Below, one piece after another: positions 23,715 to 46,564 of a stretch of DNA of 64,000 nucleotides. Position 1 is the stretch's first letter. Every line of letters starts with the position of its first letter. Source of the stretch: Candidatus Woesearchaeota archaeon (lineage in GTDB: Archaea > Nanobdellota > Nanobdellia > Woesearchaeales > JACPIF01); the NCBI GenBank assembly GCA_016188215.1, contig JACPIF010000010.1:43174-107173 (forward strand), given 5' to 3'. Under the pieces are notes generated by a model. That model did no database searches and had not been told where the DNA came from. It saw only the letters and a program-made list of their open reading frames with translations. A program made the position numbers and the translations under genes.

Positions 23715-24296
23715 TCATTTCTTGCTGAATATCCGCGCGTTATTGGTTACGCTGGCAAGCTGCCGGTCAATATCTTCCTGGCTGCCTTCACCATATGTAA
23801 CTAATATCTTGTCAAGGTCAAAGAACTCATAATCCTTGTAATTATCTATGAGCATCCCGTTGACGTACACCCTCAGCTTCTTAGTGGTTGTGTCGCACAG
23901 CTTCCTGCTTTCAAAAGTAATGCAATTCCCTTCAAAGGCAAATCCAAGGGTGCTCAAAAAATAGCCTATTGTTACACCTGTTGCATGCTTATGTAGCACA
24001 TCCCCTCTACCCTCTTCAAGGTGTACAAATTTATCAGTAAGCTGGTATCTCAGTTGGGACAAGTCAAGTTGAGTTCCATCAACATATATTGCAATATCCG
24101 CATGCTCATGCACGCTCCCAAGCTGACCAACTTTCTGGTGATTAATGAATTCAGGGCGCGGATAATCAGGAAGGGGTTTCCTGAGATGCTCCGGCAGCTG
24201 CTCCTCATTGTCTGTGAACTGTTTATACAGGACAATAATGAAAAGCAATACAATTGCAGCCCCTCCTATGTACAAATAGATTCTCTTGGTTTTCAT
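23715..24296 (-). CDS. membrane-anchored His-rich protein, unknown function
   Basis: There is an N-terminal TM segment, and HEHADIAIYVDG..HLEEGRGDVLHKH suggests metal ligands. Confidence 0.4.
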   Translation of the reverse strand: MKTKRIYLYIGGAAIVLLFIIVLYKQFTDNEEQLPEHLRKPLPDYPRPEFINHQKVGQLGSVHEHADIAIYVDGTQLDLSQLRYQLTDKFVHLEEGRGDVLHKHATGVTIGYFLSTLGFAFEGNCITFESRKLCDTTTKKLRVYVNGMLIDNYKDYEFFDLDKILVTYGEGSQEDIDRQLASVTNNARIFSKK

Positions 24297-27413: not shown

Positions 27414-30029
27414 CTATATCTTGTGAGCCCTCATCAACAACGAATTCATCACGACACTCACAGAGCTGAAAGCCATGGCAGCTGCTGCTATCATCGGATT
27501 TAATAGGAATCCAAAGTATGGGAATAGAATGCCTGCGGCAATAGGTATCCCGACTATGTTATAGATAAAAGCCCAGAACAGGTTCTGCTTGATCTTCCTT
27601 ATAGTATACCTGCTCAGCTCAATTGCTTTTGGAACATCCCGCACATCATTCCTCATTAATACTATATTCCCGGTCTCAAGCGCAACGTCAGTCCCTGAGC
27701 CTACGGCAATACCTATATCTGCCGTGGCAAGCGCAGGAGCATCATTTATACCGTCACCTATCATTGCAACAACCTTGCCCTTTGCCTGCAGCTCTTTTAC
27801 CTTCTTTTCTTTCTCCTCAGGCAATACCTGTGCAAATACTTTATCTGCAGGGATGCCAAGCTGCCCGGCAATTGCCTCAGCTGTTTCCTTGTTGTCGCCG
27901 GTTATCATGTATACATCAATCTTCTTGCGCTGCAGCTCAGCTACAGCTTCCTTTGCGCCTTCAGTGATGGTGTCTGCAACCGCTATGACCCCTTCTGCCT
28001 TTCCGTCAAGCGCAGCAACAATCGTCGTCTTCCCCTGCTTTTGGAACTCGCTGATCTTTGCCTCAAGGAATGAAACATCAATCTTCTGCTCACGCAGGAA
28101 CTCAGGGTTGCCCAATACTGCCTTCTTTTTCTGGTAACTGCCTATGAGCCCTTTTCCGGGGACAGCCTTGAAATCCTTGAATTCCTTTCCTGCTATCCCC
28201 TTCTTTTTTGCATGATTCACAATAGCCTGCCCTATGGGATGCTCGGAGCCTTTTTCTGCTGACGCAGCTACCTCAAGCAGCCTGTTTTCATCTGCCACTG
28301 CAAATACGTCAGTTACCTCAGGCTTCCCCTTTGTCAGTGTTCCTGTCTTGTCAAATATGATTGCATTTAGCTTGTATGCAGTTTCAAGCGCTTCTCCACT
28401 CTTGATCAGGACGCCCTGCTCAGCCCCCTTTCCAGTGCCTACCATGATGGCAGTCGGCGTAGCTAATCCCAAGGCGCAAGGGCATGCTATGATTAGCACT
28501 GCAATGAAGACACTTAGTGAGAATACCAGCTTTCCAAGTTTTTCATATGCACCAAGCTGGTCTCCAGACAGCCATGCCTGCCCTAAAAAATACCATGCTG
28601 CGAATGAAAGCAATGCAATGACAATAACAACAGGGACAAAATACGCACTTACCCTGTCTGCAAGCCTCTGTATAGGAGCCTTACTGCCCTGCGCCTCTTC
28701 AACCAGTCTGATGATGTGAGCAAGTGTCGTATCCTTGCCAACTTTCTCTGCCCTGAATCTCAGAAGCCCATTCCCGTTTATAGTCCCGCCAAAAAGCCTG
28801 TCACCCGGCTTCTTATCAACAGGCTTTGATTCACCTGTCAGCATTGACTCGTCTGCATATGAAGTGCCCTCTGTGATGGTGCCATCCACCGGTATCCTTT
28901 CCCCGGGCCTCACAATGACAATGTCCCCCACTCTGATGTCATCAACCTCTATTGTTATCTCTTTGCCGTTTCGCAGCACTCTGGCTGTCTTCGGCTGCAG
29001 TTGCATCAGCTTCTTTATGGCAGCAGATGTCTTGCCCTTCGCCTTTGCCTCAATATATCTCCCTAAGATGATAAGGGTGGTGATGATGGCTGCTGTATCA
29101 TAATACACCCCAATGCTCCCCCGTGCAATAAAAAATTCAGGGAATAATGTAACCAGGGCACTGTACAGGTATGCAGCAGTAGTGCCTATGGCTATCAGCG
29201 TGTTCATGTCTGCAGTCCTGTTCTTTAATGCCACCCATGTTGAGCTGTAGAACTGCCATCCCACCCAGAATTGGACAGGAGCAGTCAGTATAAGCAATAC
29301 ATAAAGATTAGTCAGGAAATCAGGAACAAACGGGAAGAATTCAGGAAAGCTGCCGAGCAGGATAACGGTGGATAGGAGCGCTCCTATAATAAATTTCTTC
29401 TTCAACTCATACATCTCTCTATCCCGCGCCTGCTGCTCAAGGTCTGCTATATTCCCTGTTTCTTCTATTGGAGTGTAACCTGAGCCCTTTATTGCATTCT
29501 TTATTGCAGTCAGGTCTATATGGCTTGGGTCAAATTTTATCTCTGCCCTCTCATTTGCGTAGTTCAGGCTTACGTTTTGGATGCCGTCAAGTTTTTTCAG
29601 GGCTTTCTCAACAATCTCTACACAATGCGGCGAATGCATGCCGAGCACTTTGAGGCGCACAAACTCCGCTCTTTCGGATGTGGCAGGTTTGGGTGCAACA
29701 AGCGCTTTGTATCCTGTGCTGTTGATAGCCTTATAGACATCAGTTTCCTGAACTTTAGTAGGATCAAATGTGACGGTGGCGCGCTCAGTTCCATAATTGA
29801 CGCTGGCTGCCATAATCCCCGAAGTCTTCTTCAGGGCTTTCTCTACAGTCACGGCGCAGGATGCGCAATGCATGCCCCTTATTGGCACAATAATTGTTTT
29901 TTCCTTGCCGCTTTGTGAGGCATGAGTTAAATGGTTGATATTCAGCTCGCGCTTGGCTGCCTTTTTAGCCCTGACAGTATGCTTGGCATTCTTACCTTTG
30001 CTTTTACTTATATGCTTCTTTCCTGCCAT
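27414..30029 (-). CDS. copA: copper-translocating P1B-type ATPase
   Basis: Two N-terminal HMA domains are present ([15 protein letters not shown] and degenerate [15 protein letters not shown]). The core motifs are TGE (TGESKPV), CPC ([12 protein letters not shown]), DKTGTLT and [10 protein letters not shown]. Confidence 0.9.
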
Positions 30030-32260: not shown

Positions 32261-32698
32261 ATGCCATCCCCAATTGATATGGCAGACATCAAAGTGACCA
32301 ACATGGTGAAGTTCTACACGCTGAGCCTCCTGGCAGCGGGCCCTAAACACGGCTATGAGCTCCTCAAGGAACTGGAAGGCAGGCTGGGCAGGAAGATGAG
32401 CGCCTCCCATGTGTACCCTTTCCTAAACAGCCTGAAGCAGAAGCGGCTGGTTACCATCAACCGGAGGGGCGGCCGCGAAAAAAAGGTATACCAATTGACC
32501 CCGAATGGCAAGGCTTTCACCAGGCGGATGTTCGTAAAGTTTGGGGACCTCATCTCGCTTGCCATTGAGCCGAAGCTTACAATCTGCATGCAATGCGGCT
32601 GCAAAGTATATGAAGGCGGGCATGAGGAAAGCGTAGGTGGCAAAGCCATGAAGTTCTGCTGCCAATATTGCGCCAGGTCATACCGCTCCCGGCACTAG
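32261..32698 (+). CDS. PadR-family winged-helix regulator fused to C-terminal Cys-rich (zinc-ribbon/metal-binding-like) tail
   Basis: The PadR core is LAAGPKHGYELLKELE..HVYPFLNSLKQKRLV. The tail is CMQCGCKVYEGGHEE..KFCCQYCARSY. Confidence 0.55.
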   Translation: MPSPIDMADIKVTNMVKFYTLSLLAAGPKHGYELLKELEGRLGRKMSASHVYPFLNSLKQKRLVTINRRGGREKKVYQLTPNGKAFTRRMFVKFGDLISLAIEPKLTICMQCGCKVYEGGHEESVGGKAMKFCCQYCARSYRSRH

Positions 32699-32707
32699 CT
32701 ACTCCTG

Positions 32708-33229
32708 TTATTCCTTGCAGCAGTCCACCAGCTTCTTGACCATAAGCGAAAAGCGGCGCATCATCCCTTTCTCTGCATCCTCCTTCTGTAGGGCATCAGG
32801 TTTCCTGGCAGACTGACTGAATTCCTCAACTGCAACAAGCTTCAGATTTATAGCAAAGAATAATGAGTACATGTTGAAGGCAGCAGTGAAGAATTCCTCT
32901 GCCTCCTCAATATTTTTCCTTGAAAGCTCTTTTGTGCCGACTTCCATGAGGCGCATGCTGGCAGCCAGCAGATGCTTGCTGATGCACCATTCCTCCCCTT
33001 TAGGGCTCTTCACTATCTTGGCAAGCATCTTTTTCCGTAATTCGCGGACACTGTCCAGCATCTCAAGATACTTGCGGTTTCCGGTCTTCATGGCAGTAAA
33101 ATAAAGATGCTCTTCCAGGCTGAGCAGGTTCATTATGCCTATGCTAAGATCCTCGTCCCTTGAAAGATCAGCGCTCCCTTTCTTCTGCTCTTCCAGTTTC
33201 CTGAGCCAAACCTGTATCTCTTCTTCCAT
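32708..33229 (-). CDS. hypothetical cytoplasmic protein
   Basis: The ORF is 173 aa and helical, with a C-terminal CC. Confidence 0.35.
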   Translation of the reverse strand: MEEEIQVWLRKLEEQKKGSADLSRDEDLSIGIMNLLSLEEHLYFTAMKTGNRKYLEMLDSVRELRKKMLAKIVKSPKGEEWCISKHLLAASMRLMEVGTKELSRKNIEEAEEFFTAAFNMYSLFFAINLKLVAVEEFSQSARKPDALQKEDAEKGMMRRFSLMVKKLVDCCKE

Positions 33230-33239
33230 GCAGACCTCC

Positions 33240-33782
33240 TCATACGATAAAGTACAATCCCAGCCAGCCTAAGCCTAAGGCCATTACAGTCAACGCAACC
33301 CCCTGGTAGGGGAACAGGACCTTGCCCCGCACAGCCTTAATCCTCACATGAGTCCAGTAAGCAATAATGGTGAGCAATGCGCCAAAGGCGCTGCCAAACA
33401 GCATCTTTGGAATCCAGTACACCTTGTTCAGCAATGTTCCGGGCTCTCCGCCAAGCAGGATTGGCAAATATAGCATATCATTATTGATGTACAGCAGTGG
33501 CATTACTGTCAGCAATAAGGAACTGACCGTAAGCACTGATTTTTGGAATGGAACCTTGGCTCCGTATCTTCTTTCTATAACCAGTGCAAACCATAATCCT
33601 GTGGATATCCCGAAAGCGCCCAGCATCAATCCTATGAGGCTTGGGTCAAAGCCATAATAGCTTGCAGAGGCAGCAGCGCTACCCACAGCTATGGTACATA
33701 GAGGGCAATGCGCCCATGCCTGCGGCATCCTTAACAGCAGAAGTGCCGGGAGTGCAAAAAGCCAAAAAATTACCTTTTTCAT
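33240..33782 (-). CDS. membrane protein with N-terminal HCPLC motif
   Basis: Start is placed at ATG 33780-33782 (MKKVIF). The signal-like N-terminus is followed by AHCPLCT and about 5 TM helices. Confidence 0.45.
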   Translation of the reverse strand: MKKVIFWLFALPALLLLRMPQAWAHCPLCTIAVGSAAASASYYGFDPSLIGLMLGAFGISTGLWFALVIERRYGAKVPFQKSVLTVSSLLLTVMPLLYINNDMLYLPILLGGEPGTLLNKVYWIPKMLFGSAFGALLTIIAYWTHVRIKAVRGKVLFPYQGVALTVMALGLGWLGLYFIV

Positions 33783-33784
33783 GG

Positions 33785-33943
33785 TTAATGACAGCACCCG
33801 CCCTTCTTTGAATTTTTAGCATTTTTCTCGTATTGCTGAACACATGCACTTGAGCAAAACCACTCATCATGCTTCCGTATCCCCTTGCCTTTTTCTTCTT
33901 TCATTCCACAAATTGGATCTTTTTTCCTTAGGAAGCCAAACAT
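33785..33943 (-). CDS. YHS/TRASH-domain metal-binding protein
   Basis: DPICGMKEEKGKGIRKHDEWFCSSACVQQYE matches the YHS pattern (DPVCGM.V....YYFCS..C...F). The C-terminus ends GGCCH. Confidence 0.6.
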   Translation of the reverse strand: MFGFLRKKDPICGMKEEKGKGIRKHDEWFCSSACVQQYEKNAKNSKKGGCCH

Positions 33944-33944
33944 T

Positions 33945-34283
33945 TTAACAACCCCCAACCATGCCGGATGATGAAGGTGTTGCTCCTTGCTGCACTCCCG
34001 CAGGAAGCACGCCATGGTGCTCATACATCATCTTATCGTTCTCTGACCATGAGGATATGTCAAGCGATTGCTGCCCTGCCACTGATGCTCCAGACGCAAT
34101 CTCTCCCCTTAGTGTATTTATCTGGAATGCCTGCACTACTACAAACAGCAGCACAAGGCTGACCATGCCGAGGATTATGTAGCTCCTTAGCTTGCCCTGG
34201 CCTGATTCATGGCTCTCTCCAGCTTTTTCCTTGCTGTGTGAGCCACAGCAATCCTCTACTCCTTTTTCGTCTCTATGTCTCAT
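33945..34283 (-). CDS. single-TM protein ending in C-terminal MVGGC
   Basis: The N-terminus has DCCGSH, one TM follows, and the protein ends ..SSSGMVGGC. The SD GGAGGT lies 8 nt upstream. Confidence 0.5.
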   Translation of the reverse strand: MRHRDEKGVEDCCGSHSKEKAGESHESGQGKLRSYIILGMVSLVLLFVVVQAFQINTLRGEIASGASVAGQQSLDISSWSENDKMMYEHHGVLPAGVQQGATPSSSGMVGGC

Positions 34284-34392
34284 TTTTGATACCTCCGAAT
34301 TTATGAGGAGGTTCCAAATTCCTGTTTGATACCTCCGAATTTATGAGGAGGTTCCAAATTCCTGTTTGATACCTCCGAATTTATGAGGGGGT
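34284..34392. repeat. 40-bp direct repeat x2.7 in 5' region of 33945-34283
   Basis: The unit tttgatacctccgaatttatgaggaggttccaaattcctg repeats with period 40. Each unit has the inverted repeat cctcc-N10-ggagg. Confidence 0.85.
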
Positions 34393-34453
34393 CAGAAACC
34401 GAGAAAAGCTATGCTTTTCTGGTCCCGAAAATCTATGGATTTTCGTGGAATTA

Positions 34454-35107
34454 TTAATTTTCTATACCCCTGTACTTGTTTGATGCTATATTTATGTAAT
34501 TCAGTTCAATCCCTTTCTTCTGCATGACTGCAGCTTTCTCAGCCATTATATCCGGGAAAAACAATGTTTTCCACTTGCCAAGCTCTTCAAGAATCTCATC
34601 ATCAGTGAATTCTGAGCCGTGGTTCCTGATGAGATATTTTGCAACGCCGCGCATCGCGAAGCTGTGCTGGCATCCGCATGCAGCTTCCCCATTCTGGAAT
34701 ATTATTGAATCTGTGCCGCAGCAATATTCGCAGCTTATCTGGCTGGCAATGCTGATGTACCTTTCCTTTTCCTCGCCTGAAAGCCTGATACCAGTATCAA
34801 GCCTTCCGAGCTTAGCTATAGTACCGTCAGCCTTCTTCTGGTCCTGCAGCGAGATGTCGTCATAGCTGACACTGAGCTCGGCGCCGTATATCCTTGGCAT
34901 TCCTTTTGGGAATATGTCAGGCAGGTTCTCCTTGGCCGGCTGTGCCTGCACACCTTGCTGCATGATGGCCTGCCCTTGTATAGTATTGGAGGGAGCATTC
35001 ATGCTTCCCATACCCATCAGCTGGAATTCGTTGAATCCAGCTATGAACATGCCTGCAACCAATAATCCTAATACCAAGCGATCTATATTATCAATCTGCA
35101 TTTGCAA
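34454..35107 (-). CDS. membrane-anchored Cys-rich protein, CxxCC..CGC family (paralog of 43851-44579)
   Basis: ISCEYCCGTDSIIFQNGEAACGCQHSFAMRGVAKYLI.NH..TDDEILEELGKWK is collinear with ISCEFCCGAPSVVDNNGRDLCGCSHAQSFMGLSKYLIKTH..TNDEILLELTKWK. Confidence 0.5.
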   Translation of the reverse strand: MQMQIDNIDRLVLGLLVAGMFIAGFNEFQLMGMGSMNAPSNTIQGQAIMQQGVQAQPAKENLPDIFPKGMPRIYGAELSVSYDDISLQDQKKADGTIAKLGRLDTGIRLSGEEKERYISIASQISCEYCCGTDSIIFQNGEAACGCQHSFAMRGVAKYLIRNHGSEFTDDEILEELGKWKTLFFPDIMAEKAAVMQKKGIELNYINIASNKYRGIEN

Positions 35108-35197
35108 TCACCAGTCTTTTGATGCAAAGAAACAGCTTATCTATTTACTGATGAAACTAGTTTCATTAGAAGTTTCGTATAGAATTATCTATTTGGT

Positions 35198-35674
35198 CTA
35201 TTTAAGAACAACTATATTAGTCATGCCCCTTCTCTTCTTCTCAAGGATGCCCTTGCTCTCCATCTTGTCCAGGATACGTGTCATGCGCACCTTGCTCAGG
35301 CCCATCTCCTTGATAATGTCTGACTGGTATGCAGAGCCTTCCCTGGCCTTGACGAATTCATACACCTGTTTCTCATTAGCGTCAAGCCTGCTTAGGTCAA
35401 CTGGTTTGATGAGAGCTTTTTCGCCTGCCTTATAAAAAAACATAAGGTAGATCCCTACGCCCAGCATGATAAAGGTTATGCCAAACGCTATAGTGAGCAG
35501 CCAGGAGAGGTTGCTTTTATGGGCAGGATTATCCTGGATCTTTATTCCTTGCTCATGGGCGCTTTCGCACAGTAGCCTGGCCTGCTCATCTGTGGTTACC
35601 TTTACGAAGGCAAGGATAAACAACAGGATGATTGATACTGTAAGGAGCCCTGCTCCAATTGTCTTTGTCTGCAT
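35198..35674 (-). CDS. membrane-anchored winged-HTH (MarR/TrmB-like) protein
   Basis: Two TM segments are followed by a C-terminal wHTH (EKQVYEFVKAREGSAYQSDIIKEMGLSKVRMTRILDKMESKGIL). Confidence 0.45.
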   Translation of the reverse strand: MQTKTIGAGLLTVSIILLFILAFVKVTTDEQARLLCESAHEQGIKIQDNPAHKSNLSWLLTIAFGITFIMLGVGIYLMFFYKAGEKALIKPVDLSRLDANEKQVYEFVKAREGSAYQSDIIKEMGLSKVRMTRILDKMESKGILEKKRRGMTNIVVLK

Positions 35675-40075: not shown

Positions 40076-41074
40076 CTATTTGAGCTTGAGCTTTAAATTC
40101 TTATCTTTTTGCTTGCTGGACTGCCTGGCCTTGCCACTTCTTCTCCAAAAGTAGACCATCAATATAATAAATGCTGCCAACAGCAGCCCGCCAAGGATAT
40201 TGCCGAGAGCAGAGCCGAACAGTTTGCGCTGCCAGTCATAGAAGAGCAATTTGCCGCCGAACATGCTGAAGGCATTGAACTTCCAGGTTCCTCTGTAAAC
40301 GTAGATGATAACTCCCATTGCGATTAAAAGCAAGCCTCCGAGCATGTTGCTTGAATTAAATGCAAACCTGCCAAGATAGATTGTCTTGCCGCGCATCCAG
40401 GGCTTGCTTCCAAGATCATAGCGGTCATATAATCCTGCTATGATGAACAATGGGACAAGAATACCTATCCCGTAAAAGAAGAATAGCAATGTTGCATAGA
40501 AGAAATTGTGCAAATAAGTTGCCATGACAAGAATTCCTACTAAGATAGGCCCTAAACAGGCGCTCCACCCAACAACAAAGAACATACCTAGAAGGTACAT
40601 GCCAAGGTAATCATGCCTGAACCTTCCGGGCTTGATGAACGAGGAAAATCCTTTGCCAAAGAACAGCATTATGCCTAAAGCAATAAGAAGCAGCCCGGAC
40701 ACCTGGGGCAATATGGATGACTCTTCCTGTAAAAAGAGAAATGATTTTCCTATATAGGCTGCAATTAAGCCGAGAGCTATAAACACTGTCATAAACCCGG
40801 CAGAAAATGCAAGCATTACCCTAAAGATATCCTTCTTTTCCTTAAAGGTAAATGCGAAGAAAGCAGGAAGTGTAGTTGCAGTGCATGGGCTCAGCAAGCT
40901 GATGAATCCTGCAAGGAAAGCTATGAGGAATGATATGTTCCTCACATTAGCTTCAGCATCCTGCTGGTTTGATGCCATGGCATTCAGCAGGCTCTGCGGC
41001 AGCTGCTGGGGATATGCAATCGGTATAAATAATAAGACAAGAAATAAAAAAATAACTATATTTTTGGTTTTCAT
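40076..41074 (-). CDS. DsbD/CcdA-family transmembrane disulfide electron transporter (extended)
   Basis: A signal peptide is followed by LSPCTATTLPAFFAF and a second conserved Cys (WSACLGPILVG). Confidence 0.7.
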   Translation of the reverse strand: MKTKNIVIFLFLVLLFIPIAYPQQLPQSLLNAMASNQQDAEANVRNISFLIAFLAGFISLLSPCTATTLPAFFAFTFKEKKDIFRVMLAFSAGFMTVFIALGLIAAYIGKSFLFLQEESSILPQVSGLLLIALGIMLFFGKGFSSFIKPGRFRHDYLGMYLLGMFFVVGWSACLGPILVGILVMATYLHNFFYATLLFFFYGIGILVPLFIIAGLYDRYDLGSKPWMRGKTIYLGRFAFNSSNMLGGLLLIAMGVIIYVYRGTWKFNAFSMFGGKLLFYDWQRKLFGSALGNILGGLLLAAFIILMVYFWRRSGKARQSSKQKDKNLKLKLK

Positions 41075-41075
41075 A

Positions 41076-41498
41076 CTACCTGACGATAATGCTGCCTTTC
41101 ATGTCACTATGGCCTGAGCCGCAGAAAACAGTGCATATCATGCCTGGATTGAATGTTCCTGTCTTGTCTGCAACAAATTCAATAGTCTGGGTCTCGTTAG
41201 GCGGCAGCCTGACGCTCTCCACGCCGAAATCAGGCAGTGCCATGCCGTGGGTTACATCAATGCTTGTCACTTTCAGCCTTACCCTGTCCCCTTTATTGAC
41301 TTCAATAGTACTGGGAATAAATTCCCATCTCTTTGCAGTAATCTCAAATTCCTTGACGGGAATTGTCACGCTATTTCCAGTATTATCTCCGGTATTATCT
41401 CCAGTATCCTCTTCAGTATCAGTTCCCTGAACTATTGGCTGAGTCTGCGTGCAGCCTGCTAAAAGCAGGAGAGCGATCAATATAAGATATTTTTTCAT
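41076..41498 (-). CDS. cupredoxin-domain lipoprotein with CuA-like C-x3-C-x3-H-x2-M motif
   Basis: The lipobox is LAGCTQT. The motif EFITAKRWEFIPSTIEVNKGDRV..THGMALPDFG..GMICTVFCGSGHSDMKG has COX2/NosZ-like CuA ligand spacing. Confidence 0.6.
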   Translation of the reverse strand: MKKYLILIALLLLAGCTQTQPIVQGTDTEEDTGDNTGDNTGNSVTIPVKEFEITAKRWEFIPSTIEVNKGDRVRLKVTSIDVTHGMALPDFGVESVRLPPNETQTIEFVADKTGTFNPGMICTVFCGSGHSDMKGSIIVR

Positions 41499-41528: not shown

Positions 41529-42767
41529 CTATTGAGCCTGCGGCTGCGGCTCAACAACCTTATTGCTCTTTAGATCCTTATAAGTGCCCAGCGCTTCAGT
41601 AAACCTGAACACATAAACAGCCTCACCAGTGGCTGTATCGTTAGTTGCGGTGCCGACCTCTTTCCATAGTTCCACCACCTGCGGATAGGCTTCCAAATCA
41701 TTGGAAAGGAAAATTGTAGGAACCTTTGTTATATTATAATTCTGCAGGAATCTTTTGCCTTCATTTGATGAGATATCATATGTGTGCTCATCCCCTGTTG
41801 TGACCCCTAAGCTAGCCAATATCTGCTTGTGAAGGGCAGCATCATAGCATGCAGTGCAGCTTTTGTCAGTGATATAGGTTATATCAACCAACCCCACAAT
41901 ATCTTTTTTCTGCAGGTCATAGTAAGGCATGGCGACTTCCCGTAATATATATGAGCCGTCTGCTTCATGCGTTCCTACTGCAGCCCAGTTCTGCTGTACA
42001 GCCTCATAATCGCCAATGCTGTCGCTGAACACCAATGCAGGCAATTTCTTTATGCTATACTTGCTGAGCAGCTGCTGCCCTTCCTTTGAAGAGGCTTCAT
42101 ATTTTTTTTCATCATTGATATAAACGCCGGCTGCCTTAGCCTGCACCAGGAATTCATTCAGGTCAGTGCAGTTTCTGCAACCATCCTTAAATATAAGGAC
42201 AGCACTTACCACACCTTTCAGGCTGCCTGTCTTCAAGTCAATGTACGGCGCAGGGGTTGCAAGGACATAAGCATCATCCCTTTTCTCAAGCTGCTGTGCC
42301 AGGCCGCTCTTTTCAACCTCGCCGGTTACTATCAACGCAGGGATACGCTCAATGCTATATTGTGCTATAAGCTCCCGGGCCTGCGCATCGTTTCTCTCAT
42401 AAACTGTTTCTTTTGTTACAGTAACCTTGCCTTCCTTGAGCAATTCTACAAGCCTTTCAAGCGCAACGCAGTTTGTGCAGCTGCTGTCTTTAATAGTGAC
42501 AAACTGGAGCTGCGCCGGCTTTGACTGCTCCTCAGCCTGTGCAACTGTATTTTTTATCTGGCCCTGCAATATAAACAGGATTATCACATTGACAATCAAT
42601 ATGGCTGCAAGCCCTATAAGAAGGACGTTTCTCCAGTTTTCCCAGTCAAACTGCTTATCCCTAGCCATTGGCTCCAGGCGCTTTTCGTGTTTCAAACCTC
42701 CTGGTTTGAGACTAGGAACAAAGTTCCTATGCTTCATTTTATGCCCTTTCTGCTTTCCAGTATCCAT
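41529..42767 (-). CDS. membrane-anchored protein with three tandem thioredoxin-fold CxxC modules
   Basis: A TM anchor is followed by three repeats: SCTNC..RIPALIVTGE, GCRNC..KLPALVFSD and SCTACYDA..KVPTIFLSN. Confidence 0.55.
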   Translation of the reverse strand: MDTGKQKGHKMKHRNFVPSLKPGGLKHEKRLEPMARDKQFDWENWRNVLLIGLAAILIVNVIILFILQGQIKNTVAQAEEQSKPAQLQFVTIKDSSCTNCVALERLVELLKEGKVTVTKETVYERNDAQARELIAQYSIERIPALIVTGEVEKSGLAQQLEKRDDAYVLATPAPYIDLKTGSLKGVVSAVLIFKDGCRNCTDLNEFLVQAKAAGVYINDEKKYEASSKEGQQLLSKYSIKKLPALVFSDSIGDYEAVQQNWAAVGTHEADGSYILREVAMPYYDLQKKDIVGLVDITYITDKSCTACYDAALHKQILASLGVTTGDEHTYDISSNEGKRFLQNYNITKVPTIFLSNDLEAYPQVVELWKEVGTATNDTATGEAVYVFRFTEALGTYKDLKSNKVVEPQPQAQ

Positions 42768-42780
42768 CGTATCAACTCTT

Positions 42781-43281
42781 TTACACTACTTGGCTGCCTT
42801 GCCCGGCTTCTGTATCTTGATTTGCTGCCATTCCCGAGAGCGGGCATCCTGTTAGCTGTGACAGCCTATCAAAGCTTTGTACACCCTCATACCGCTCGCC
42901 ATTGATTTCCCATGTAGGGGTTTTCCTGATGCCTTGAGTTTCCTTGTAGTCCTTATAATTGACATACTTGAATGAATTGCCAAACCAGGCTGCCTGCTGT
43001 TTCGTATACTGGCACCAGCCAATTGCACCGTACATGACTGCGCCTTTATCCGTAAGGCATTTTGCAAATGCGTCATACTGCCCTGGCTTGAATTTAGCTG
43101 AGTATATTGAATATGAAAGCCCGCCGAAGATCAATACAATGATGACAGCAGCACTAATGAAATAAAGCCTTGTTTTCCGGCTTTTTTCACCCTGAAATCT
43201 TGCCAGGTCAGCCTCATGCTGCTTTCTGAGCGCTTCTGCCTGCTCCCTGTGCCTTTGCTGCGCTAGCTTAGAACTATCCAT
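42781..43281 (-). CDS. membrane-anchored VKOR-associated-type thioredoxin-like domain with CxxT in place of CxxC
   Basis: VMYGAIGWCQYTKQQAAWFGNSFKYVNY..TPTWEINGERYEGVQSFDRL resembles the Trx domain fused to bacterial VKORs. The second Cys is Thr. Confidence 0.5.
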   Translation of the reverse strand: MDSSKLAQQRHREQAEALRKQHEADLARFQGEKSRKTRLYFISAAVIIVLIFGGLSYSIYSAKFKPGQYDAFAKCLTDKGAVMYGAIGWCQYTKQQAAWFGNSFKYVNYKDYKETQGIRKTPTWEINGERYEGVQSFDRLSQLTGCPLSGMAANQDTEAGQGSQVV

Positions 43282-43308: not shown

Positions 43309-43533
43309 TTATGCAGATGGCGCTCCTGCACTGGCTGCATCAGCTGCCGCGCCTGTGTCTGCTGCAGGCGCTGCGACTCCGCATCCGCCGCCTACGGCAG
43401 CCTGCTGCCCCTGAGGCTGGCCCTGATATGCCGCATATCCTGATGGCGTCTGGTTTTTAGTGCATCCTGCCAAAAGCAGAAGAGAGATGCTTATAACCAA
43501 TGCCACAACTAAAATTCCTTTTCTCATTAGCAT
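43309..43533 (-). CDS. small Gly/Ala-rich lipoprotein
   Basis: The lipobox is LAGCTKN, with a GGGCGV motif. Confidence 0.4.
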   Translation of the reverse strand: MLMRKGILVVALVISISLLLLAGCTKNQTPSGYAAYQGQPQGQQAAVGGGCGVAAPAADTGAAADAASAGAPSA

Positions 43534-43620: not shown

Positions 43621-43857
43621 CTAACAGCCGCCTACCATTGTCGGCAGGTTCTGGATGCTTGACGGCACATTCGGGCTGCCCTGCTGTCCGGACTGGCTTA
43701 CTGTGTTTTGGGCAGTTCCGCCTACTTTCAACTGGCCGCTTGCCAGCTTGCTTTTCAGGCCTACTAACTGAACTGCCTGCACCAAGGTTACTAATACCAG
43801 CACTACCAGCACAATCACGATTACTGTATTCTTGTTCATTTCTAAACCTCCTAACAA
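43621..43857 (-). CDS. single-TM protein ending in C-terminal MVGGC
   Basis: The protein has a TM and a Gln/Ser-rich tail, and ends ..IQNLPTMVGGC. Confidence 0.5.
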   Translation of the reverse strand: MLGGLEMNKNTVIVIVLVVLVLVTLVQAVQLVGLKSKLASGQLKVGGTAQNTVSQSGQQGSPNVPSSIQNLPTMVGGC

Positions 43858-44579
43858 CCTCCTACCATTGCCGGCAGCGCGCCTATGCTTGAGGTATCGC
43901 CTGTGCTTAGCTTGCTCAAGAGCTGCGCATCGTTTAGGCTGGATGCAGTGAGCTCCATGTCATTGCTCAGCAAGGCTGCTGCCTTTTCTACCATATTCCT
44001 GGGGTAGTATAAAGATTTCCATTTTGTCAATTCAAGCAGGATCTCATCATTTGTATATTCAGGATGCGTCTTGATGAGATATTTTGACAGGCCCATGAAT
44101 GATTGCGCATGGGAGCATCCGCACAGGTCCCTTCCATTGTTGTCAACTACTGAAGGTGCCCCGCAGCAGAACTCACAGCTGATCCTTGTGCCAATGTCAA
44201 TATACCTCTGCTTTTCATCACCAGTCAGGCTGCCTGTTGGCACTTGGCCATGGAGGCTCGCCAGCCTGTTAAGGCTATTTACTGGATCGTCATATGAGAC
44301 TCCAAGCTCAGGCCCCCACTCGGGAGTTCCAGTAGGTATCAACGCGTTGATTGCATCCTGGACATTATCGCCTGTGCGCTTCACTTCAAGGGCAAGCTCG
44401 CCGCTCGTTCCTTTAGTCATCTTGCTGCCTGAAGGGGTAAACGTCTTAGATATAGTATTTGTGCTCAAAGGGCCAGGGCTTGCAATGGTTGCAATCTGGA
44501 ACCAATTGAATAGAATCAGGAGTGCGACCGCACCAATCACGTATAAGCTGTATCTTTCAACAAATTCGTTGCTTTTCAT
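43851..44579 (-). CDS. membrane-anchored Cys-rich protein, CxxCC..CGC family, with C-terminal MVGGC
   Basis: It is a paralog of 34454-35107 and ends ..IGALPAMVGGC. Confidence 0.55.
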   Translation of the reverse strand: MKSNEFVERYSLYVIGAVALLILFNWFQIATIASPGPLSTNTISKTFTPSGSKMTKGTSGELALEVKRTGDNVQDAINALIPTGTPEWGPELGVSYDDPVNSLNRLASLHGQVPTGSLTGDEKQRYIDIGTRISCEFCCGAPSVVDNNGRDLCGCSHAQSFMGLSKYLIKTHPEYTNDEILLELTKWKSLYYPRNMVEKAAALLSNDMELTASSLNDAQLLSKLSTGDTSSIGALPAMVGGC

Positions 44580-44808: not shown

Positions 44809-45303
44809 ATGACCCTTATGACAGCTGAAATTGGCGAAAGAAGAGATGAAAGGCTCCTTGAAGACAGTGTAGATGCATTAATAGGACAGACAACAGGCGC
44901 CTCCTCAGATGAAAAGTTTGTAACCAGGATAATGTATGAGAATCAGCCATTTATTGATATCTTTGGAGACTCTGCTCAAGTATACATTCGCGGAACTTCA
45001 CCAAAAATGCCTGATAGGCTCAGAAGGATAGTTCAAGACAAAGAGAAAATTGAGGGTGGATCTGATGCTAATTCTGTGGTAGCCGATATTGAAAATGAGC
45101 CAGGGATAACTAAATCTATAGAGATGGTGAGGCGAATTGGGTTGCTTGGAAAAAACATAATAGATGTGTATAGGGCTTCAAGGCAAGTCCATGTCCGTGT
45201 TCCCTCCTCGCGATTGCCTGATATATTGCAGGAAGTCTTACGGTTGTACCAGCATGAGGGTTATGGCATCTCTGGTGGCGCACCATCTGCAGGGTTCTTT
45301 TAG
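44809..45303 (+). CDS. hypothetical cytoplasmic protein
   Basis: The ORF is 164 aa with no family recognised. Confidence 0.4.
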   Translation: MTLMTAEIGERRDERLLEDSVDALIGQTTGASSDEKFVTRIMYENQPFIDIFGDSAQVYIRGTSPKMPDRLRRIVQDKEKIEGGSDANSVVADIENEPGITKSIEMVRRIGLLGKNIIDVYRASRQVHVRVPSSRLPDILQEVLRLYQHEGYGISGGAPSAGFF

Positions 45304-45418: not shown

Positions 45419-45778
45419 ATGAGACGACTCAGGTTTGCCGGGACTAATGATTCTGTGCTGAGCCCGCTTGAAAATGATGTTCTAAAGATTCTGTGGCCTG
45501 ACAAGAGGATGAAGGTGCGCGCAATCTACGACAGGCTGAAAGGGAAGCGAAAGGTTGCCTTGTCAAGCATTGCGGTGATCCTGGACAGGCTGCATGAGCG
45601 CTCTATTGTTGAGCGGCAGATTGAGACAGGCAGAGGAGGGGTGCGCTATATATACTTCCCTAAGAAAAACAAGCAGGAATTTGAGACCGAGATCGTCGAA
45701 TCCACTGTCAATTCACTCATAAACAAGTTCGGGCAGACTGCAATCAGTTATTTCAATGAGCGGTTTTCAAAACGGTAG
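45419..45778 (+). CDS. BlaI/MecI/CopY-family winged-helix repressor
   Basis: LSPLENDVLKILWPDKRMKVRAIYDRL...ALSSIAVILDRLHERSIVERQ fits the family. Confidence 0.6.
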   Translation: MRRLRFAGTNDSVLSPLENDVLKILWPDKRMKVRAIYDRLKGKRKVALSSIAVILDRLHERSIVERQIETGRGGVRYIYFPKKNKQEFETEIVESTVNSLINKFGQTAISYFNERFSKR

Positions 45779-45817: not shown

Positions 45818-46564
45818 ATGGATCTAACGTGCTCAAGCTGCGCATATGCGTTTTTTACTGATCCCTTAAAGATGGGATTGGTACTTGTATCTTTTACCCT
45901 AGCCATAGCTTTTTTCCTGTATCTAAGATATGCAAGGGGCATAAGCAACGGAAGGAAACTCGGCCTGATATATGCCCACATATTCTTCCTGGTCTTCCCG
46001 GTTGTGTTTTATATGCTCTTTAGGGGATGTACTACATACTTCTCAAATTGTGACCAGCTCAAACCTGTCATAGCGCTGCTGTTCCTGACCGGCCTTACAG
46101 CAGGATTGCTGGGGGCAGTAATAGCTCCATTCCTCTTTATCAGGAAGCATGCCAGGATATCAATCCCATTAAGGGAAGGGCATCTTGCTGATGTTGTCAG
46201 GAAGCACGGCGGCAGGAAAAAGGCACAGCTGTACATGCTTGATACTGCCAAGCCGCTGGCATTTTCCACGTCTCACTTCAGCCATAAGATATTTGTCTCA
46301 ATCGGGCTGGCAGACCTGCTTACAAAGAAAGAAAAGGAAGCTGTCGTGCTGCACGAGCTCGCGCATCTTCATAATAAATCCTCGCTGCTGAAAAGCTCAA
46401 CCTTCCTGCTTGGCCTGGTGTCGCCGCTTTCAAACTTCTCAAGCATACATAGTGTAACGCAGGAGGAAGAGAAGGCAGACAGGTTTGCCGCGGCGAGGCA
46501 AGGCACCTGGCGCTATGTGCGGTCTGCAAAACAGAAGATTAACGAATTCTATAGAGAATCCTGA
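45818..46564 (+). CDS. BlaR1-like M56-family membrane metalloprotease
   Basis: About 4 TM helices carry HExxH (VVLHELAHLHNK). The gene is adjacent to the BlaI-like repressor. Confidence 0.6.
   Translation: MDLTCSSCAYAFFTDPLKMGLVLVSFTLAIAFFLYLRYARGISNGRKLGLIYAHIFFLVFPVVFYMLFRGCTTYFSNCDQLKPVIALLFLTGLTAGLLGAVIAPFLFIRKHARISIPLREGHLADVVRKHGGRKKAQLYMLDTAKPLAFSTSHFSHKIFVSIGLADLLTKKEKEAVVLHELAHLHNKSSLLKSSTFLLGLVSPLSNFSSIHSVTQEEEKADRFAAARQGTWRYVRSAKQKINEFYRES

Follow-up and report, generated by a model that had tools for sequence, protein, structure and literature searches.

A Paired-Gene Module of Membrane-Anchored Cys Proteins With MVGGC C-Termini in DPANN Archaea

Introduction

Much of archaeal diversity belongs to the DPANN lineages, in which the function of most conserved genes has yet to be assigned. 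Some described systems for handling thiols and copper resemble, in part, the genes reported here. C-terminal thiol arms are found in SoxY (..GGCGG), thioredoxin reductase (..GCUG), MerA (C-terminal CC), and DsrC. Among envelope copper systems, TlpA keeps the ligands of Sco reduced, and ScsABCD is comparable. The arm of SoxY is a reactive C-terminal Cys on a flexible Gly-flanked segment that is presumed to reach the active sites of its partners (PMC5336275). CcmH acts on an unfolded peptide, reducing its Cys motif via a mixed disulfide, which is resolved by a thioredoxin (Trx)-like partner, with electrons supplied by DsbD/CcdA (PMC3884852). Within DPANN, CuA-only “nosZ-like” proteins have been described (PMC10936187).

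Here, we report a previously undescribed two-gene module that occurs across DPANN archaea. It is present in two copies in the window, by which we mean the whole 64,000-nt stretch of woesearchaeal DNA analysed. With a near-invariant pentapeptide at the C-terminus, a fixed partner gene, and a coherent redox/copper context, the module is among the sharper unknowns of DPANN genomes. A full-text literature search for “MVGGC” returned unrelated papers only, none using it as a C-terminal tail.

Results and Discussion

Two genes with one tail

Each locus consists of a larger gene, B, followed by a smaller gene, A. At locus 1 (33945–35107), B1 (34454–35107; 217 aa) is followed by A1 (33945–34283; 112 aa, ..SSSGMVGGC). 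At locus 2, B2 (43851–44579; 242 aa, ..LPAMVGGC) is followed by A2 (43621–43839; 72 aa, ..NLPTMVGGC). The initial annotation had noted three ORFs that end in MVGGC (33945–34283, 43621–43857, and 43851–44579). We confirm these ends, and all four ORFs are encoded on the minus strand at the coordinates given here. The likely start of A2 within ORF 43621–43857 is the ATG at 43839, and the resulting length of 72 aa is also the one called independently on identical contigs. B1 and B2 align with 38% identity (E 6e-42) and are clearly paralogous. Six-frame translation of all 64,000 nt contains MVGG exactly three times, each time followed by Cys and a stop, which excludes chance as the cause of the MVGGC ends.

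The pairing had been proposed from the two loci in the window and holds widely, the A gene coming after the B gene in 75 of 77 cases. The module is present in at least 253 species genomes, and the proteins form 328 clusters at 50% identity in which the terminal Cys is near-universal. MVGGC is the C-terminus of 118 of the 120 best homologues, so the tail is conserved in orthologues, and nearly every full-length representative also has Cys at its very end. Because a tail-only protein query is too short, and a 43-aa query returned only 4 near-identical proteins, the tail census was made by DNA-pattern scan. An unbiased scan of metagenomes recovered 42 B proteins, 64 proteins scored as A-like, and about 8 further A-like proteins recognized by eye, the remainder being chance matches; viral contigs gave chance matches only. 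Across 80 genome loci (4912 ORFs of ≥40 aa), MVGGC terminates 144 ORFs and QVGGC another 11, and clustering assigns every one of them to the B or A type. The tail was found on no other family among ~1,700 neighbouring genes from these loci and the window. Many lineages have Q, W, F, or I at position −4, and the tails of B and A co-vary within a genome (M/M 65, Q/Q 4, mixed 1; these counts are not phylogenetically independent).

The tail had also been suggested to be a sorting or processing signal. Under such a reading LPx[M/Q]VGGC would direct C-terminal processing, sorting, or lipidation: the terminal Cys might carry a thioether lipid anchor, a sortase-like enzyme might cut at LPxM, or loss of the Cys might leave Gly-Gly exposed. 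The extreme conservation of the last five residues and of their position would suit this, LPx resembles LPXTG, and Gly-Gly termini are used for conjugation in other systems. We nevertheless consider it highly improbable, since both the neighbouring genes and the unbiased DNA scan restrict the tail to B and A, whereas LPXTG/sortase and PGF-CTERM/archaeosortase signals are common to many unrelated substrate families and comprise a hydrophobic helix and a basic tail, neither of which follows the motif here. Both A and B already have an N-terminal membrane anchor. CaaX prenylation substrates differ in that their Cys is fourth from the end and cytosolic, whereas this Cys is terminal and the tail is predicted to lie outside. 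No sortase, archaeosortase, prenyltransferase, or E1-like gene occurs among the conserved neighbours, and ATP-dependent conjugation is implausible outside the cell.

The B proteins and CcmH

Pfam and NCBIfam scans of A and B gave no match, nor did a profile search of PDB sequences with either protein, in agreement with the earlier description of the larger family as unannotated; homology places it in no well-characterised family. B proteins have an N-terminal transmembrane (TM) helix and a soluble domain of ~140 residues with the consensus I-S-C-E-F/Y-C-C (SCEYCCG..CGCQH in B1). The collinear Cys motif first written for B1 and B2 is correct. Five core Cys plus the terminal one are present in 160 of 173 members. 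K/R residues average 2.0 before the helix vs. 0.8 after it, and from these counts we infer that the domain and the tail are outside the cell.

AlphaFold2 (AF2) models of the two B paralogues, built separately although from overlapping homologue sets, reached pLDDT values of 88.7 and 88.0. In these models the B core is a CcmH-like three-helix bundle in which the loop joining helices 1 and 2 carries the CxxC. Alignment of profiles with hhalign sets the CxxC of B on the RCxxC of CcmH (P 0.0056, probability 6.6%; one of 200 column-permuted controls equals the score), and one register accommodates both the CxxC and the S/TDxEI helix. Because the E. coli CcmH query returned close enterobacterial sequences only, ten diverse CcmH/NrfF sequences were collected from plasmid records, and nine of these were combined with E. 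coli CcmH in the CcmH profile. Pfam PF03918 matches neither B1 nor B2 (E ≤ 0.1) nor any of 36 core sequences (E ≤ 10). A Foldseek search of the PDB gave insignificant global matches only, probably due to the TM helix and linker. The sole link of B to a characterised family, the one to CcmH, is distant and at the level of fold. In the B2 model the tail region has pLDDT values of 79–84, consistent with docking of the tail onto the domain.

Like members of the CcmH/NrfF/CycL family (PF03918), B proteins are membrane-anchored and predicted to be extracytoplasmic, and they have Trx-like and DsbD/CcdA partners, which for the module are indicated by gene context. The differences are considerable. The motif is SCE[FY]CC rather than LRCxxC, with the CxxC kept, the Arg missing, and an invariant, vicinal third Cys added. 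An inserted G..CGCxH element raises the complement to five Cys and a His, the anchor is N-terminal in B but C-terminal in CcmH, and B carries a C-terminal Cys arm. Furthermore, neither CxxCH clients nor signatures of CcmF, CcmE, or heme lyase are found near the module. Among 1,704 neighbourhood genes at the sampled loci none encodes a WWD-motif protein, and CxxCH occurs once in six of them and twice in none. We therefore reject a role in cytochrome c maturation, as heme lyase and CxxCH clients are absent from the sampled loci. Instead of redox-active disulfides, the five-Cys-plus-His site could hold structural Zn or a Cu cluster. An Fe–S cluster is unlikely, judging from the Sec-type membrane anchor, which lacks a twin-arginine signal, and the predicted outside location.

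The A proteins

Of 114 A proteins, 104 contain one Cys only, at the very end, and extra Cys occur in N-terminal extensions only. A2 is a canonical arm-only protein, with a TM helix ending in LVQAVQL and a Gly/Ser/Gln linker of ~35 residues before the tail. Both A and B conserve a polar motif, QxxQ[ILV], where the TM helix ends on the outer side.

The layout of the pair, in which the small gene has a conserved C-terminal “core” and a larger conserved gene adjoins it, would also be expected of a ribosomal peptide precursor (A) and its recognition or modification protein (B). We find this RiPP-like reading scarcely credible, however: B itself bears the tail of A, what is best conserved at the N-terminus of A is a membrane helix and no leader, and no RiPP enzyme class was detected among the conserved neighbours scanned with Pfam.

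The tails resemble the swinging arms of SoxY, thioredoxin reductase, MerA, and DsrC, in which a reactive Cys likewise lies at or beside the C-terminus, flanked by glycines on a flexible segment. Those proteins belong to unrelated folds and pathways, however, and in the module the Cys is the very last residue, with a strictness that known arm systems do not explain. The arm is also carried on a linker of tens of residues, and an arm-only paralogue, A, exists. The module lacks the features of SoxY-type carriers (an Ig-like SoxY fold, a SoxZ partner, sox genes, and a GGCGG end), and no Sox-, Dsr-, or Mer-type families are among the conserved neighbours.

Gene context

Downstream of the module at locus 2, on the same strand, are several genes for envelope thiol and copper proteins. 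A small lipoprotein with one further Cys in GGGCGV (43309–43533) has an equivalent in position at 14 loci. Next to it is a membrane-anchored Trx-like protein (42781–43281), conserved in 25 loci, that is a clear homologue of the Trx-like domain fused to VKOR in Synechococcus (PDB 3kp8/3kp9; profile E 2e-20). It differs from that domain in standing alone on a TM anchor, with no VKOR detected, and in most members its active site is CxxT (here WCQYT, a monothiol form, not WCPHC), aligned on the CPHC. The gene that follows encodes a membrane-anchored protein with three thioredoxin-like CxxC domains (41529–42767; Pfam Thioredoxin_3, 4e-12) and is the commonest neighbour of the module, found downstream on the same strand in 47 loci. 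Beyond it are a lipoprotein cupredoxin (41076–41498; Pfam Cupredoxin_1 and COX2) in which a motif scan detects the CuA-type motif CTVFCGSGHSDM, and a CcdA/DsbD-type membrane thiol-disulfide transporter (40076–41074; Pfam DsbD_2 and DsbD_TM). Divergent from B2, on the plus strand, are a BlaI/CopY-family repressor (45419–45778; Pfam Penicillinase_R, 4e-13; 38 loci) and a BlaR1-like M48/M56 membrane metalloprotease with HELAH (45818–46564; Pfam M48 4e-6 and M56 8e-5; 37 loci).

Locus 1 has a different set of neighbours, on the minus strand unless stated. Directly downstream is a small YHS/TRASH-like protein (33785–33943, within ORF 33785–34024) that contains DPICGM and ends in KKGGCCH; its likely start, 33943, is 2 nt past the A1 stop. 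Pfam gives only a weak treble-clef match for it, and a YHS-motif gene is at the equivalent position in another locus (L079). It is followed by a multi-pass membrane protein with HCPLC right behind a signal-like N-terminus (33240–33797; no Pfam match), which is conserved in 12 loci near the module, downstream and on the same strand. A helical, presumably cytoplasmic protein ending in VDCCKE (32708–33229), for which neither Pfam nor PDB sequences gave a match, is conserved near the module in 11 loci, and DCCKE ends seven ORFs in the 80 loci. Next is a plus-strand gene for a PadR-family regulator with a C-terminal TRASH metal-binding domain (32261–32698; Pfam PadR 1e-15, TRASH 8e-5). The copper context of the locus includes a CopA-type P1B ATPase with two HMA domains (27414–30029; Pfam E1-E2_ATPase 8e-64, HMA 4e-32). 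Upstream of B1 is a membrane-anchored winged-helix regulator, DUF7343/MarR-like (35198–35674; Pfam DUF7343 8e-13), a type of gene that precedes B in 24 loci. All neighbours named in the initial annotation (the YHS-like ORF, CopA, the cupredoxin, and the GGGCGV lipoprotein) are thus present in the window. In addition, two module loci are on putatively bacterial contigs, labelled “Buchananbacteria.”

The universal context of the module is thiol-redox. A CcdA-like or Trx-like gene is within 5 kb of all 33 well-flanked B genes, with a CcdA-like gene at 24 of them. Copper-type genes (CopA, HMA, cupredoxin) occur in 36 of the 80 loci, which by our estimate, rather than by computation, seems far above random 20-kb stretches of ~1 Mb genomes. 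CuA-motif cupredoxins recur in many loci, and in one (L054) an HMA–DsbD_2–cupredoxin fusion adjoins CopA.

This copper signal raises the question of whether the module is primarily a copper device. The tail may provide a terminal Cu/thiolate ligand, as had been suggested. Terminal Cys arms would in such a device bind Cu(I) on the outer side of the membrane, such as that expelled by CopA, and ligand exchange would deliver it to the CxxCC..CGCxH site; B would sequester a Cu(I)-thiolate cluster or load the CuA cupredoxin, while CcdA and Trx-like proteins would keep the ligands reduced. The genes adjoining locus 1 (YHS, PadR-TRASH, and CopA) fit this, as do the His-rich cytoplasmic N-terminal extensions of B (5% His vs. 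1.3% overall, up to 24%) and A1-type proteins with KMMYEHHG or EMMARMHPDQ outside and CC motifs inside. In addition, the exchange of Met for Gln at −4 parallels the axial-ligand swap known in cupredoxins. W, F, and I are also accepted at this position, however, so Met is not a required ligand. Nor are the copper genes universal: within 5 kb of B, a CuA cupredoxin is present in 8 and an ATPase in 9 of the 33 well-flanked loci, vs. 33 of 33 for thiol-redox genes. Neither A nor B matches CopZ/HMA, Sco, PCuAC, or CopG by sequence profile or fold, or has the metal motif of a known Cu(I) chaperone, and the fold of B is that of a thiol oxidoreductase. We regard a primary copper function as a serious but somewhat unlikely reading. 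The module does share with the CcdA/DsbD–TlpA–Sco–PCuAC route of CuA assembly and with ScsABCD in copper tolerance the combination of CcdA/DsbD-type supply, Trx-like proteins, and Cys-based copper handling by a CuA protein. It differs in having no identifiable homologue of Sco, PCuAC, or Scs and in that its carriers are new families.

A regulator is within 5 kb of 29 of the 33 well-flanked B genes. B and A might on this basis be the missing extracytoplasmic sensor subunits of the BlaR1-like protease, which is short (248 aa) with no further Pfam domain matched, or of the membrane-anchored winged-helix protein. The QxxQ[ILV] helix end shared by A and B would transmit the state, redox or metal, of the Cys cluster and the terminal Cys, and this would switch BlaI proteolysis. 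Such adjacency is weak evidence because stress operons commonly adjoin their own regulator, and about one in eight well-flanked loci has no regulator within 5 kb. Two identically tailed proteins and a full Trx/CcdA set also exceed what a sensor needs, and we consider this role quite improbable.

A possible surface thiol arm

We give an even chance to the proposal that the module acts as a membrane-tethered surface thiol arm, relaying electrons and perhaps copper outside the cell. B would be anchored by its one N-terminal helix and display outside a CcmH-like thiol:disulfide oxidoreductase domain whose site is the enlarged CxxCC..CGCxH. In canonical B proteins such as B2, a flexible linker would extend from the domain to LPx[M/Q]VGGC, with the Cys last, and A would correspond to B minus the domain, retaining helix, linker, and tail with the sole Cys terminal. 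This Cys would be a swinging thiol arm, comparable to that of SoxY or the C-terminal tail of thioredoxin reductase, and may form mixed disulfides, or possibly Cu(I) bridges, with the Cys site of B and with single-Cys partners, namely the CxxT Trx-like protein and the GGGCGV lipoprotein. In the presumed direction of electron flow, CcdA-like transporters and CxxC thioredoxin-like proteins would bring in the reducing power. Probable clients would be surface thiols and the ligand Cys of the neighbouring CuA cupredoxin or of copper-handling proteins. Expression may be controlled by envelope-linked regulators, either BlaI with the BlaR1-like protease or the membrane-anchored winged-helix protein.

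If the thiol arm model is correct, the CcmH fold extends beyond cytochrome c maturation, to organisms without c-type cytochrome machinery at the sampled loci, and the tails represent a new type of C-terminal thiol carrier that includes a domain-less, “arm-only” protein. The module would also provide a handle on how very reduced genomes maintain Cys and copper sites at the cell surface, which may include those of the DPANN CuA-only “nosZ-like” proteins. A bolder and, in our judgment, unlikely version is that A is a gene-encoded, tethered thiol cofactor, a surface stand-in for a low-molecular-weight thiol such as glutathione that serves as redox buffer and Cu(I) shuttle, with B as its dedicated CcmH-like reductase or loader with a built-in copy of the arm. 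If true, this would be a new mode of envelope thiol chemistry for genome-reduced archaea.

Within the thiol arm model, locus 1 would be a recurrent split variant in which B1 is arm-less and the arm is supplied in trans by A1. We rejected the possibility that B1 is a pseudogene or a truncation, as the tail-less B1-then-A1 arrangement recurs in another locus (L058) and further tail-less B-type proteins exist (L075 and P0177). A1 is a single-pass protein with DCCGSH near its N-terminus, on the predicted cytoplasmic side, and its TM helix ends in VVQAFQI ahead of the outside motif W-S-E-N-D-K-M-M-Y-E-H-H-G. The outside His/Met motif together with the cytoplasmic CC motif suggests a metal-oriented subtype at locus 1, and this subtype is also found in two other loci (L042 and L058).

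The B1–A1 intergenic leader is repetitive. No credible Rfam match was found over 33800–35300, which includes this leader. A tandem repeat at 34285–34392, on the minus strand, consists of 2.7 copies of a 40-nt unit (TRF, 98% matches, score 209) that is found nowhere else in the window, where 0 matches are expected by chance. Each unit contains a Shine–Dalgarno-like GGAGGT, and the last copy is immediately upstream of the A1 start codon.

Two paired loci and their distribution

The window contains two loci at which a larger membrane-anchored, Cys-rich protein (B, with a CxxCC..CGCxH motif) is encoded with a small partner (A), all on the minus strand. At locus 1, A1 (33945-34283, 112 aa) ends in ..SSSGMVGGC, and B1 (34454-35107, 217 aa) carries SCEYCCG..CGCQH and is without the tail. 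At locus 2, B2 (43851-44579, 242 aa) ends in ..LPAMVGGC. For A2 (43621-43857) the likely start codon is the ATG at 43839, for a product of 72 aa; genes called independently on identical metagenome contigs have this length too. B1 is a paralogue of B2 (38% identity, E 6e-42); A1 and A2 have little in common except the helix end and the tail. The four ORFs and MVGGC ends of the initial annotation were borne out, and the shared ends are not due to chance: translating all 64 kb in six frames yields MVGG three times, always with Cys and a stop after it.

The gap between B1 and A1 contains 2.7 copies of a 40-nt unit (34285-34392, minus; 98% identity), each with a CCTCC..GGAGG hairpin and a Shine-Dalgarno-like GGAGGT, the final copy lying immediately upstream of the A1 start codon. 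Elsewhere in the window the unit is absent, and nothing in Rfam matches it. A translation-initiation leader may have been duplicated recently here, or the repeat may be a regulatory element.

The module is real, widespread and undescribed, and merits follow-up. Pfam and NCBIfam contain no match for A or B, and a profile of 122 B sequences matched no PDB sequence. A homologue search with B2 returned 203 proteins; those named at source are all hypothetical proteins of Woese-, Aenigm- or Nanoarchaeota. The proposed conservation of MVGGC extends to orthologues, with 118 of the 120 homologues listed (the best 120 of 203) ending this way, mostly as LPxMVGGC. The B core has ten invariant residues (B2 numbering: C135, E136, C138, C139, C153, G154, C155, H157, K188 and P193).

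Searching 1.84 billion representatives with a profile gave 328 clusters at 50% identity. Among 147 cluster representatives, almost every full-length protein has the terminal Cys. Ends are MVGGC (78), QVGGC (27) and variants including MVGAC, MVGSC, MVGDC, WVGEC and FVGSC, with M, Q, W, F or I at position -4; a few end in ..GGCG. What stays constant, then, is the terminal Cys and the Val-Gly just before it. Some representatives carry 230-420 additional N-terminal residues (P0121, 493 aa; P0197, 609 aa; P0246, 456 aa; P0258, 469 aa), and P0121 continues beyond ..MVGGC; in P0215 (546 aa) the additional sequence is C-terminal instead.

Relatives turned up in 253 genomes when one genome per species was scanned, and we kept 80 loci totaling 1.1 Mb. 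These include Woese-, Nano-, Aenigmat-, Micr- and Iainarchaeota and the AR15 chromosome; two of the bins carry the label Buchananbacteria, and a few labels look doubtful. The B-A module, with same-strand BlaI and M48/56 genes, is present in bins labelled Candidatus Buchananbacteria (L048, L054), Gammaproteobacteria and Binatia (L059 and L027), whose A proteins have a long N-terminal extension in common. This reflects either true transfer to CPR bacteria or mis-binning.

Pairing and exclusivity of the tail

The proposed paired-gene arrangement recurs: in 75 of the 77 B genes with enough downstream DNA, a small same-strand ORF ending G-x-C comes after B. Among 4912 ORFs of at least 40 aa in the 80 loci, 144 end in MVGGC and 11 in QVGGC, and the next commonest terminal pentapeptide occurs nine times. 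Clustering assigned every tailed ORF to B or to the small A type. An unbiased search of metagenome contigs with a DNA pattern encoding P-x-M-V-G-G-C-stop recovered 42 B genes, 64 ORFs scored as A-like and about eight further A-like ORFs misfiled by the length or transmembrane filter. The remaining matches were chance (five-codon ORFs, or TGG instead of a stop). No other family with this tail was found in these contigs; in viral contigs, all 19 matches were chance. The tail had initially been suggested to be a processing or sorting signal. It is confined to A and B and no hydrophobic segment follows the motif, which argues against sorting, lipidation or processing, and we regard such a role as quite improbable. 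B and A tails co-vary per genome (M/M 65, Q/Q 4, M/Q 1; Fisher p 5e-6, on counts that are not phylogenetically independent), which suggests one common reader for both.

Anatomy of A and B

A proteins (n=114) have a median length of 73 aa and a single N-terminal helix that usually ends in QxxQ[ILV] (e.g., VQAFQL), followed by a Gly/Ser/Ala/Gln linker leading to ..(P)SNLQNLPxMVGGC. The helix of B ends similarly (FNQ[YF]QI). A therefore looks like B without its core domain; that A is a RiPP-like precursor is highly improbable. In 104 of 114 A proteins the only Cys is the last residue, further Cys occurring only as CC motifs in N-terminal, presumably cytoplasmic, extensions. Six Cys follow the helix in 160 of 173 B proteins (five core, one terminal). 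Lys/Arg counts before versus after the helix (B, 2.0 vs 0.8; A, 2.0 vs 1.3) favor an N-in, C-out topology for both. N-terminal extensions of at least 20 aa, found in 78 B proteins, are rich in His (5% vs 1.3% overall, up to 24%).

Vicinal-Cys motifs also recur at other protein termini in these loci. A1-type N-termini (L041, L049 and L079 among them) begin DCCGSH, HDCCKE, DECCKN or THCCEE, and the YHS-like protein at 33785-33943 ends in KKGGCCH. A helical protein at 32708-33229 ends in VDCCKE; seven such ORFs occur in the 80 loci, and neither Pfam nor the PDB sequences contain a match to this family.

Predicted fold and possible relation to CcmH

AlphaFold2 models of B2 (pLDDT 88.7, pTM 0.76; tail region pLDDT 79-84) and B1 (pLDDT 88.0, pTM 0.71) are both confident. 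They are not fully independent, since their alignments have most homologues in common. The modelled fold is like that of CcmH/NrfF (PF03918), the non-thioredoxin thiol:disulfide oxidoreductase of cytochrome c maturation; in the fold comparison the next match scores 5.4. A Foldseek search with the B model found nothing significant. Against a 10-sequence CcmH/NrfF profile, the B core aligned over 59 columns (P 0.0056), placing the B CxxC on the CcmH RCxxC and TDDEIL on S-x-x-EI; one of 200 column-permuted controls reached this score. Remote homology to CcmH is plausible. The curated Pfam CcmH model gives no match at all, and by this sequence measure B is not a member of the family.

CcmH reduces the CxxCH of unfolded apocytochrome via a mixed disulfide that is resolved by CcmG, with electrons from DsbD/CcdA (PMC3884852). 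The B-A loci give no indication of cytochrome c maturation: among 1,704 neighborhood genes we found no WWD heme-lyase motif, and a single CxxCH in only six.

Gene neighborhood

Two operon types recur. In type 2, represented by window locus 2, B is divergent from genes for an M48/M56 protease and BlaI, and is followed by A, [GGGCGV lipoprotein], [CxxT Trx-like], three-domain Trx, [CuA cupredoxin] and [CcdA]. Independent contigs of identical sequence also have a gene call for the 164-aa ORF between B2 and BlaI (44809-45303, plus). In type 1, that of locus 1, a membrane-anchored winged-helix protein precedes B1, A1, [YHS], [PF11139, a second CcdA-like family], an HCPLC membrane protein and the DCCKE-ending protein.

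Every one of the 33 B genes flanked by at least 5 kb on both sides lies within 5 kb of a gene of CcdA-like or Trx-like type (CcdA-like for 24, Trx-like for 24). A regulator is nearby in 29 of the 33; that A and B are sensor subunits of these adjoining regulators is improbable. The window regulator (35198-35674, winged helix, DUF7343) has two transmembrane helices and a short outside loop with Cys and His (LCESAHEQG in the window, C..DGCPHE in L038). The protein may sense envelope redox state or metal as a one-component system.

Copper-type genes are present in 36 of the 80 loci; of the 33 well-flanked B genes, eight have a CuA-motif cupredoxin gene within 5 kb and nine a P-type ATPase gene. 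A chiefly Cu(I)-carrying module, a reading that overlaps with a thiol relay, is possible but doubtful. DPANN are already known to encode CuA-only 'nosZ-like' cupredoxins (PMC10936187). One protein (L054:9759-11084) joins HMA (cytoplasmic Cu-binding), DsbD_2 membrane and cupredoxin domains, directly followed by a CopA-type ATPase. This fusion suggests that cupredoxin and CcdA, adjoining separate genes in the window (41076-41498 and 40076-41074), work together.

The 166-aa protein at 42781-43281 is a homologue of the Trx-like domain in the cyanobacterial VKOR fusion (3KP8, E 2e-20), with WCxxT in place of WCPHC in most members, and would be another single-thiol partner. It is stand-alone and membrane-anchored, members often end in ..TGCPL, and no VKOR gene was seen nearby. 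The product of 23715-24296, a conserved neighbor in 23 loci (cluster c9) without a Pfam match, has an N-terminal helix, D-x-D-G-R-C-D-A-C-G..C..C, and HIHADF and HMHATG motifs.

A possible extracytoplasmic thiol relay

The module is best described as an envelope thiol-disulfide relay combining a CcmH-like fold with C-terminal Cys arms, including an arm-only protein. We give this best-supported reading, an extracytoplasmic thiol relay, an even chance. Conservation, pairing, confinement of the tail to A and B, likeness of fold, Cys counts and gene context are direct results; the arm chemistry, the topology, the clients and the direction of electron flow are inferred. In this reading A, and B where it is tailed, would use the terminal Cys as a flexible arm. 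The analogy draws on the tails of DsrC, MerA and thioredoxin reductase. A further basis is the swinging arm of SoxY (PMC5336275). The CcmH-like domain of B would recognize LPx[M/Q]VGGC peptides, its own and those of A, and take part in disulfide exchange with both. Further single-thiol partners would be the GGGCGV lipoprotein and the CxxT Trx-like protein. Cytoplasmic reducing power would reach the relay via CcdA and CxxC Trx domains. Surface thiols, together with the Cys ligands of CuA or other copper proteins, are the probable clients.

At locus 1, the arm for tail-less B1 would be supplied by A1. This split subtype recurs in L058. A1 adds KMMYEHHG (outside) and DCCGSH (inside), beside YHS, PadR-TRASH and CopA, which fits a copper-oriented version.
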